DNA of 64,000 nt from Escherichia coli (GCF_003018255.1 NZ_CP027440.1); one strand, 5' to 3'. Positions 13,426 to 13,957 are shown, counted from the stretch's first letter. A program made the numbers and translations. Notes: generated by a model from the sequence alone, not told the origin.

Positions 13426-13635
13426 AAACGGTTTGCGGGGAAAGAAGAGTTAAGTAGAATTGCTGCGGGTGCTTGAGGCTGTCTGCCTCGGGCATGCCGA
13501 CGTAAGGCAGACAGAGAAAAGCCCCAGTTAACATTATGCGTCTTGCAGGACGCTTAACATTAATCTGAGGCCATATCTATGACTTGCACACTTAGATTAG
13601 CCTCTTATGCGCCGAAAGGCAAGGAGCAGCAGGCT

Positions 13636-13791
13636 ATGAAGCAGCAAAAGGCGATGCTAATCGCCCTGATCGTCATCTGTATTACCGTCGTTGTAACGGT
13701 ACTGGTAACGAGGAAAGACCTCTGCGAGGTACGAATCCGAACCGGCCAGACGGAGGTCGCTGTCTTCACAGCTTACGAATCTGAGAAGTAA
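13636..13791 (+). CDS. Hok/Gef-family type I toxin (51 aa); upstream in-frame extension from 13579 resembles a mok-like leader
   Basis: MKQQKAMLIALIVICITVVVTVLVTRKDLCEVRIRTGQTEVAVFTAYESEK with an AAGGAG Shine-Dalgarno; near-identical to HokD/RelF as I recall it. Confidence 0.8.
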   Translation: MKQQKAMLIALIVICITVVVTVLVTRKDLCEVRIRTGQTEVAVFTAYESEK

Positions 13792-13860
13792 GAGACCCGG
13801 CGAGGGAGAAATCCCTCGCCACCTCTGATGTGTCAGGCATCCTCAACGCACCCGCACTTA

Positions 13861-13887
13861 ACCCGCTTCTGCGGGTTTTGTTTTTTC
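13861..13887 (+). terminator. rho-independent terminator of the hok transcript
   Basis: acccgc-ttct-gcgggt hairpin followed by TTTTGTTTTTT. Confidence 0.5.
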
Positions 13888-13957
13888 CTGGCATTCTGGT
13901 TTACAATTCGCACGCCGGCCTGAACAACTGGCACCTGCTGTGTCACCGGAGAACCCG

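Follow-up and report, generated by a model that had tools for sequence, protein, structure and literature searches.

The best-known phage relative of the element considered here is hokW-sokW-mokW, a toxin-antitoxin locus of the Shiga toxin (Stx)-converting lambdoid phages 933W and Sp5 (VT2-Sakai), in which all three genes have been annotated. Its toxin, HokW, has been reported to be toxic and located in the inner membrane, while the sokW RNA, seen by northern blot, genetically counteracts HokW with an antitoxin activity that is partly RNase III- and Hfq-dependent (PMC8621323). For the reference system, hok/sok (parB) of plasmid R1, a mechanistic model has been put forward that includes tac/ucb and SDmok/dcb states of the mRNA (SDmok being the mok Shine-Dalgarno sequence), and 3' processing of the mRNA, cleavage by RNase III of the duplex between Sok and hok, and toxicity of Hok have all been shown (PMC9841398). 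Here, a stretch of 64,000 nucleotides of Escherichia coli DNA (GCF_003018255.1, NZ_CP027440.1), referred to below as the window, with positions counted from its first letter, was analysed following an earlier note which had placed a Hok/Gef-family type I toxin locus at 13440-13890, inside a nin-like region. It was concluded, with a high degree of confidence, that positions 13420-13886 contain a complete and intact type I toxin-antitoxin cassette of the hok/sok family, within the HokD/HokW/Gef clade. The features described earlier were all found to be present, well above chance. The proposed location was also borne out, as the cassette belongs to the nin region of a lambdoid Stx2a prophage in E. 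coli, with replication genes (O-like and P) and small nin-type open reading frames (ORFs) upstream and a DUF968-RusA-antiterminator Q series of genes downstream.

Comparison with hokW-sokW revealed 89.5% nucleotide identity over 464 nt. The two loci are alike in their toxins (90% identical), in the in-frame arrangement of mok and hok, in the predicted position and promoter of Sok, in possessing an extended Sok hairpin and an upstream ORF of 27 amino acids (aa), and in being hosted by Stx-converting lambdoid phages. They differ in placement, with hokW of 933W being flanked by the L0141-L0139 ORFs on one side and the L0134 gene on the other, whereas the present copy lies in the nin region. They also differ at their 3' ends, where the hokW sequence of 933W/Sp5 diverges right after the fold-back inhibitor element, fbi (from about position 1964 of locus L001, compared with 13855-13886 in the window), and is without the terminator hairpin that the window and most relatives possess. 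Furthermore, the stretch for the Sok recognition tail and mok codons 2-6 reads ACTTGCACACTTAG here and CTGAACACATGTAG in 933W, and the Sok -10 hexamer is TAATCT here as opposed to TAACCT in sokW.

Beyond the exact allele, the nearest group consists of the HokD (RelF)-type loci found in E. coli prophages and P1-like phage-plasmids. A locus annotated as hokD (H46) shares 93% nucleotide identity with the cassette, and HokD-type loci have in common with it a protein that is 90% identical, a leader scoring 115 bits against the Rfam model RF01794, the pairing of the translational activator element, tac, with fbi, and the terminator. The toxin differs from the HokD-type consensus at five residues (L16I, I19V, A22V, P49S and E51K). 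In K-12, hokD was reportedly described by Pedersen and Gerdes in 1999 as a truncated relic without sok and mok; unlike that relic, the locus in the window is complete. The K-12 hokC/gef-mokC-sokC locus resembles the cassette in its protein (86% identity), its in-frame mokC, its sokC on the opposite strand and its leader (118 bits on RF01794). It is, however, chromosomal and not in a prophage, and its 3' elements have been displaced by an insertion sequence (IS), IS186, located 20 bp after the stop codon.

The R1 system shares with the cassette a Hok/Gef toxin, mok, the tac, ucb, dcb and fbi elements, the 3' hairpin and the terminator, and R1 Sok has the same TTGC-type -35 and TA...T -10 sequences at equal positions. 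R1 Hok is nevertheless only 43% identical to the toxin encoded here, tac reads GGCGCUU in R1 but GGGUGCUU in the window, and the R1 copy is plasmid-borne whereas the present one is carried on a prophage. Relative to the Rfam consensus, the Sok hairpin of the window is extended by about 16-18 nt. The arrangement of mok provides a further difference, being in frame with hok here and out of frame in R1 (GGC CAU GAA in the mok frame of locus L010). An in-frame mok, which had been offered as part of the general hok/sok architecture, is therefore correct for this locus and is the usual layout in the clade of chromosomal and phage copies, but does not hold for R1.

The toxin gene itself, predicted earlier as a 51-aa Hok-like ORF with a consensus Shine-Dalgarno sequence, was confirmed at 13636-13791 on the plus strand, including the stop codon, encoding MKQQKAMLIALIVICITVVVTVLVTRKDLCEVRIRTGQTEVAVFTAYESEK and coinciding exactly with a coding sequence called by the NCBI Prokaryotic Genome Annotation Pipeline (PGAP). 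Its Shine-Dalgarno sequence, AAGGAG, is at 13621-13626, 9 nt before the ATG at 13636, and the sequence GCAAGGAG at this site was unchanged across relatives. The protein matched the Pfam family HOK_GEF (PF01848) over model positions 1-42 of 42 (E = 4.8e-23) and PHROG 251, 'MokW-like host killing' (E = 2.6e-32). Among the seven Hok family members compared, C15 and C30 were unchanged. From its sequence the toxin is judged to be a member of the HokD/HokW/Gef clade. The longer upstream frame suggested previously was likewise found, as a mok reading frame of 70 aa at 13579-13791 (plus strand) that is in frame with hok and ends at the same stop codon. It is preceded by the Shine-Dalgarno sequence GAGG at 13567-13570, 8 nt upstream of the ATG at 13579 and almost unchanged in 48 relatives. 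The same in-frame layout has been annotated for mokW/hokW of 933W and mokC/hokC of K-12, and the overlapping frames predict that hok would be translated via mok through translational coupling.

The hok mRNA is predicted to extend over about 420 nt, from 13467 to 13886 on the plus strand, as defined by the start of the Rfam leader match and the end of the terminator. A putative hok promoter was placed at 13433-13460 (plus strand), consisting of a weak -35 hexamer, TTGCGG (13433-13438), a 16-nt spacer and the -10 hexamer TAGAAT (13455-13460). Its +1 at about 13467 agrees with the 5' end of the leader match, and the promoter stretch is the sole upstream DNA retained in many relatives. The start at 13440 proposed in the earlier note must accordingly be moved to about 13467, the former position falling within the promoter. 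The same note had called the leader GC-rich and structured; the second description stands and the first does not, the G+C content being 51%. A covariance-model search with RF01794 (gathering score 59) gave a full-length match to 13467-13641 on the plus strand, the hok mRNA strand (113.3 bits, E = 5e-25). Although this model is named 'sok antitoxin', it spans the hok mRNA from its 5' end to the hok AUG, opposite to the annotated Sok strand, and it also matched the mRNA strand of K-12 hokC, 933W hokW, hokD of a P1-like plasmid and hok of an R1-like plasmid. In locus L003 the match was at 602-754 on the minus strand. Reading the match in the window as the antisense gene itself was rejected, since both in the window and in K-12 it lies on the hok strand, and the sokC annotation of K-12 is on the other strand. 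The RF01794 match is consequently evidence for the leader and not directly for an antisense gene, and a strand-naive reading of it would assign the antitoxin to the wrong strand.

At the other end of the transcript, the stem-loop terminator anticipated 3' of the toxin ORF was recovered by a terminator scan as AACCCGC-UUCU-GCGGGUU followed by a U run at 13860-13886 (plus strand), with its stem at 13860-13877 and the T run continuing to 13886. It was the sole terminator-like site in 13300-14000. Upstream of it, a 3' hairpin, GGCGAGGGA-GAAA-UCCCUCGCC, occupies 13799-13820 (plus strand) and was present in both full-length and truncated folds. By analogy with the R1 model, from which the protective role is taken (PMC9841398), this hairpin is expected to protect the 3' end of the processed mRNA. 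A separate match to isrK, a Salmonella prophage small RNA (sRNA) family, was obtained at 13800-13881 (plus strand) with 29 bits, below the gathering score of 50; it takes in both hairpins at the 3' end of the hok mRNA and probably reflects just the common shape of a hairpin plus terminator.

Candidates for the antisense promoter and Sok-like RNA, whose absence was to count against the identification, were found at the level of sequence, in positions homologous to those of sokW. The putative Sok gene, of about 71 nt, was placed at 13517-13587 on the minus strand by transfer of sokW of 933W (AF125520), the alignment being gap-free here. The predicted RNA has an unpaired tail at its 5' end, then a long hairpin and finally a U-rich stretch, and its minus-strand fold reached -28.4 kcal/mol (z = -4.5). 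Its candidate promoter at 13594-13622 (minus strand) comprises a -35 hexamer TTGCCT (13622 to 13617), a 17-nt spacer and the -10 hexamer TAATCT (13599 to 13594), the latter in the position of the sokW -10. Within the 48 relatives, covering all subfamilies including R1, T1, A2 and T6 of the -10 hexamer and TTGC of the -35 hexamer were conserved. In hokW-sokW, mutation of the -10 sequence TAACCT with primers YO-421/422 abolished Sok (Takada et al. 2021; PMC8621323).

Folding of the transcript was used to look for the fold-back elements characteristic of hok mRNAs. The 420-nt RNA had a minimum free energy of -173.5 kcal/mol as compared with -130.8 ± 5.4 kcal/mol for shuffled sequences (z = -7.96), none of 100 shuffles being as good. 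Near the mRNA 5' end, three pairings are predicted for tac (GGGUGCUUGAGG, 13467-13478, plus strand): with fbi when the full-length RNA is folded, with ucb when the leader is folded alone, and with 13485-13495 in a 34-nt nascent transcript. In the minimum-energy fold of the full-length RNA, tac was closed on fbi (CCUCAACGCACCC, 13841-13853, plus strand; -21.5 kcal/mol) and ucb (AAGCCCCAG, 13519-13527, plus strand), the anti-Shine-Dalgarno element of mok, was paired over the mok Shine-Dalgarno region. When the leader was folded by itself, the minimum-energy structure contained instead a tac/ucb stem, equal to the Rfam consensus structure, and GAGGC at 13567-13571, the mok Shine-Dalgarno region, was paired with GCCUC at 13600-13604 (plus strand), the dcb element. 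In the 34-nt nascent transcript, tac was predicted to form a metastable hairpin of -21.2 kcal/mol. The partial transcripts thus supplied the remaining states of the published R1 model. The dcb stretch TAGCCTCTTA was unchanged across relatives and overlaps the Sok -10 region, an overlap likewise described for R1 (PMC9841398). With the toxin, the mok frame, the leader fold, the tac/fbi fold-back, the predicted alternative pairings and a candidate Sok positionally homologous to sokW all in place, the hok/sok architecture that had been proposed for this locus was supported.

Comparative support for this structure was sought among relatives retrieved from IMG/VR using a pattern drawn from the conserved Sok-promoter region, which was found in more than 120 phage contigs. 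The alignment comprised 48 non-redundant loci, including one R1 hok and one R1-like plasmid hok. A tblastn search of plasmids with the 51-aa toxin returned only relatives of at least 80% identity and did not reach R1 hok; a query with R1 Hok itself gave a 100% match in plasmids and provided the route to R1-type loci. Three decayed plasmid hok loci were left out of the structure comparison, namely an R1-type locus with its leader cut by IS150 (L004, 337-430), a Klebsiella hok copy with its leader lost (L005, 400-500) and a Salmonella hok pseudogene, a relic in which fbi and the terminator are retained (L009, 480-700). When the fold of the window was imposed on the 48 relatives, 88.6% of cells were paired, compared with 33-44% with slid partners, a measure biased in favour of the structure because it is the window's own fold. 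Changes on both sides were seen at 46 pairs, and the observed values were reached by 0 of 500 shuffles on any of five measures. The top covarying helix was the 3' hairpin (helix 17), with both-side changes at seven of nine pairs and 95.8% of cells paired, and the terminator (helix 19) showed both-side changes at five of seven pairs. Both the 5' hairpin and the region of the Sok hairpin covaried less strongly. In helix 5, which joins ucb to the mok Shine-Dalgarno sequence, the GCC/GGC and CAG/CUG pairs were conserved or covarying. In the tac/fbi helix (helix 1), 96% of cells were paired, and a 5'-3' duplex of the tac/fbi type was present in all 48 relatives at -17 to -26 kcal/mol. Compensatory tac/fbi variants included GGGUGCCGGAGC/GCUUUCGGCACCC in L082, GAGAC types in L076 and L091, and GGCGCUU/AAGCGCC in R1, with a further one in L006.

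Several observations, in addition to the bias just noted, weigh against this identification or its details. A sigma-70 consensus scan of both strands over 13300-14000 called no promoter, neither that of hok nor that of Sok. Both were therefore placed by homology, both consist of weak hexamers, and the Sok -10 matches TATAAT at only three of six positions. Since this simple scan does not call it, activity of the Sok promoter in the present allele is something we infer from sequence. The toxin scored 51.2 bits against NCBIfam NF007279 (Hok subfamily, R1-type; curated cutoff 73) and 39.1 bits against NF007290 (HokA equivalog; curated cutoff 89), and because these scores are below the cutoffs it was filed neither as an R1-type Hok nor as HokA. 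The terminator loop is UUCU here as opposed to the UUCG tetraloop of most relatives. Within the close clade tac/fbi is near-invariant, the covariation support for this helix coming from five divergent loci. For an mRNA ending after the 13799-13820 hairpin, the minimum-energy fold was without the tac/ucb stem, and under constrained folding the tac/ucb form of the trimmed mRNA was 1.5-5 kcal/mol above the minimum, so that a switch of the trimmed mRNA to the tac/ucb open form is plausible as a matter of modelling. Whereas the sequence elements, predicted pairings and conservation are observed, the transcription, processing, toxicity and biological role of this allele are what we infer from them.

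A mechanism can be proposed by analogy with R1 hok/sok and hokW-sokW of Sp5, and it agrees with every sequence test made. A weak constitutive promoter would drive synthesis of a stable hok mRNA, about 420 nt in length, in which tac would be kept in the metastable 5' hairpin during transcription. In the finished RNA, tac would be paired with fbi and ucb would cover the mok Shine-Dalgarno sequence, allowing neither translation nor the binding of Sok. Slow trimming of the 3' end as far as the 13799-13820 hairpin would then remove fbi, whereupon pairing of tac with ucb would make the ribosome site of mok accessible, and with it the target of Sok. Translation of mok would drive that of the 51-aa Hok, which would enter the inner membrane and kill or lyse the cell. 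The unstable antisense Sok of about 71 nt would pair with the mok start region and lead to RNase III cleavage. As Sok pairing would trigger cleavage of the mRNA, Hok would be made only once the supply of Sok stops. On this analogy, the likely roles of the cassette would be stabilisation of the prophage, through the killing of cells that lose it, and assistance with lysis and phage release on induction.

One alternative concerns the division between these two roles. The cassette might be functional but serve mainly as a lysis aid on induction, or in superinfection exclusion, and not in post-segregational stabilisation, with rightward early transcription in the sense direction shutting off the convergent Sok promoter. 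This reading is considered possible but doubtful. It draws on the behaviour of hokW-sokW, which quickens growth arrest after mitomycin C and whose deletion cuts phage release two-fold, so that release is doubled when the locus is present, while sokW RNA vanishes on induction (PMC8621323). It also draws on the orientation of the present cassette, which is the same as that of the upstream replication genes and the downstream DUF968-RusA-Q genes, an arrangement that recurs in 61 of 88 phage contigs. The copy tested in Sp5/933W, however, sits elsewhere in the phage genome and hence provides no demonstration of read-through interference, and the present cassette carries its own terminator. The alternative moreover concerns the role only and is compatible with an identical molecular mechanism. 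That the cassette is instead a silent relic, of the kind represented by K-12 hokD and the IS-disrupted hokA/C/E loci, with neither working toxin expression nor antisense control, is highly improbable: decayed copies are indeed common (L004, L005 and L009 being damaged among the few loci fetched), IS186 follows the K-12 hokC stop at 20 bp and both promoters are weak by consensus, but in the window all elements are intact and in register (the ORFs, both Shine-Dalgarno sequences, the tac, ucb, dcb and fbi elements, the 3' hairpin and terminator, and the promoter and hairpin of Sok), neither an IS element nor a frameshift is present, stem differences from relatives are compensatory (for example, relative to 933W, G-C to A-U at 13481/13512 and also A-U to G-C at 13803/13816) and at least eight genomes carry the sequence with 100% conservation.

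Within this intact hok/sok cassette, one patch stood out for its variability. Positions 13571-13597 (both strands), which encode the recognition tail at the 5' end of Sok together with its target and take in the mok start and codons 1-6, were present in 17 haplotypes among 38 close relatives. The mean column entropy of the patch, 0.57, was the highest at the locus, the other blocks measured giving 0.03-0.26, and the patch is flanked by near-invariant sequence. Such variability fits selection for specificities that do not cross-react, and no cross-talk has been found between R1 Sok and the chromosomal copies (PMC9841398). A tentative extension of this, to which only limited credence is given, is that the patch may be under diversifying selection, giving each prophage cassette of a poly-lysogen an orthogonal Sok specificity, and that placement in the nin region in the sense of the early operon may couple loss of Sok to induction via convergent transcription. 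If this were true, the Sok of another cassette copy could not rescue a differing specificity type. The idea of Sok specificity may have been implied already by earlier work on hok.

The boundaries of the cassette were examined through homology breakpoints in the IMG/VR relatives, which define a minimal conserved hok/sok module from promoter to terminator at 13420-13886 (plus strand). Left breakpoints clustered at 13420 (about 22 of 56 loci) and right breakpoints at 13878-13886 (42 of 79 loci), the cassette thus behaving as a discrete module. Where phage contigs had enough flanking sequence, a DUF968 homologue was found downstream on the same strand in 61 of 88, making the nin position the usual one and that of 933W/Sp5 exceptional. 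The 521 bases around the locus were 100% identical in at least eight complete genomes of E. coli (Shiga toxin-producing E. coli, STEC), and 4731 of the 5426 complete genomes gave a match of at least 80% identity, at a median of two sites each. In strain 00-3076 and the identical copies, the gene is annotated by NCBI PGAP as 'Hok/Gef family protein', WP_000813246.1.

Other features were noted in the surroundings of the cassette. Just upstream, at 13342-13425 (plus strand), is the 27-aa ORF, encoding a hydrophobic protein with a single membrane span (MTWPEAFITVGIAMAVALVVYSICRWG), whose ATG overlaps the stop codon of an upstream 171-aa ORF (ATGA). It accompanies the cassette in many phages and is open in at least 35 phage loci, including 933W/Sp5, with mostly conservative changes, and homology between the window and 933W starts exactly at its ATG. 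No PHROG or NCBIfam match was obtained for it, and it is not annotated in RefSeq. Unrelated small single-span ORFs occupy the equivalent place at other hok loci. A type II system, comprising a RelE/ParE toxin and a RelB antitoxin, is located at about 7301-7780 (minus strand) in the same prophage, some 5.8 kb upstream of hok; in K-12, relBE and hokD (relF) are adjacent. On the plus strand, three tRNA genes at 18159-18407, annotated as Ile, Arg and Arg in an identical genome, are followed by stx2A/stx2B at about 18502-19742 (transferred from NZ_CP027584.1) and, just downstream of stx2B, by a match to the STnc100 sRNA family at 19816-20031 (158 bits).

As a discovery the cassette carries little weight, the family having been known since the 1980s, the phage hokW-sokW locus having received its annotation in 1999 and experimental tests in 2021, and the gene already being present in RefSeq annotation in its exact form. 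It provides instead a clean worked example, with exact coordinates for Sok, tac, ucb, dcb and fbi, RNA parts that PGAP leaves unmarked, together with a warning to annotators that matches to the Rfam 'sok' model fall on the strand of the hok mRNA. It also identifies the nin region as the usual home of the hok/sok cassette in lambdoid prophages. With regard to the biology of STEC, a Hok protein that speeds lysis could modestly affect the release of Stx phage and toxin.
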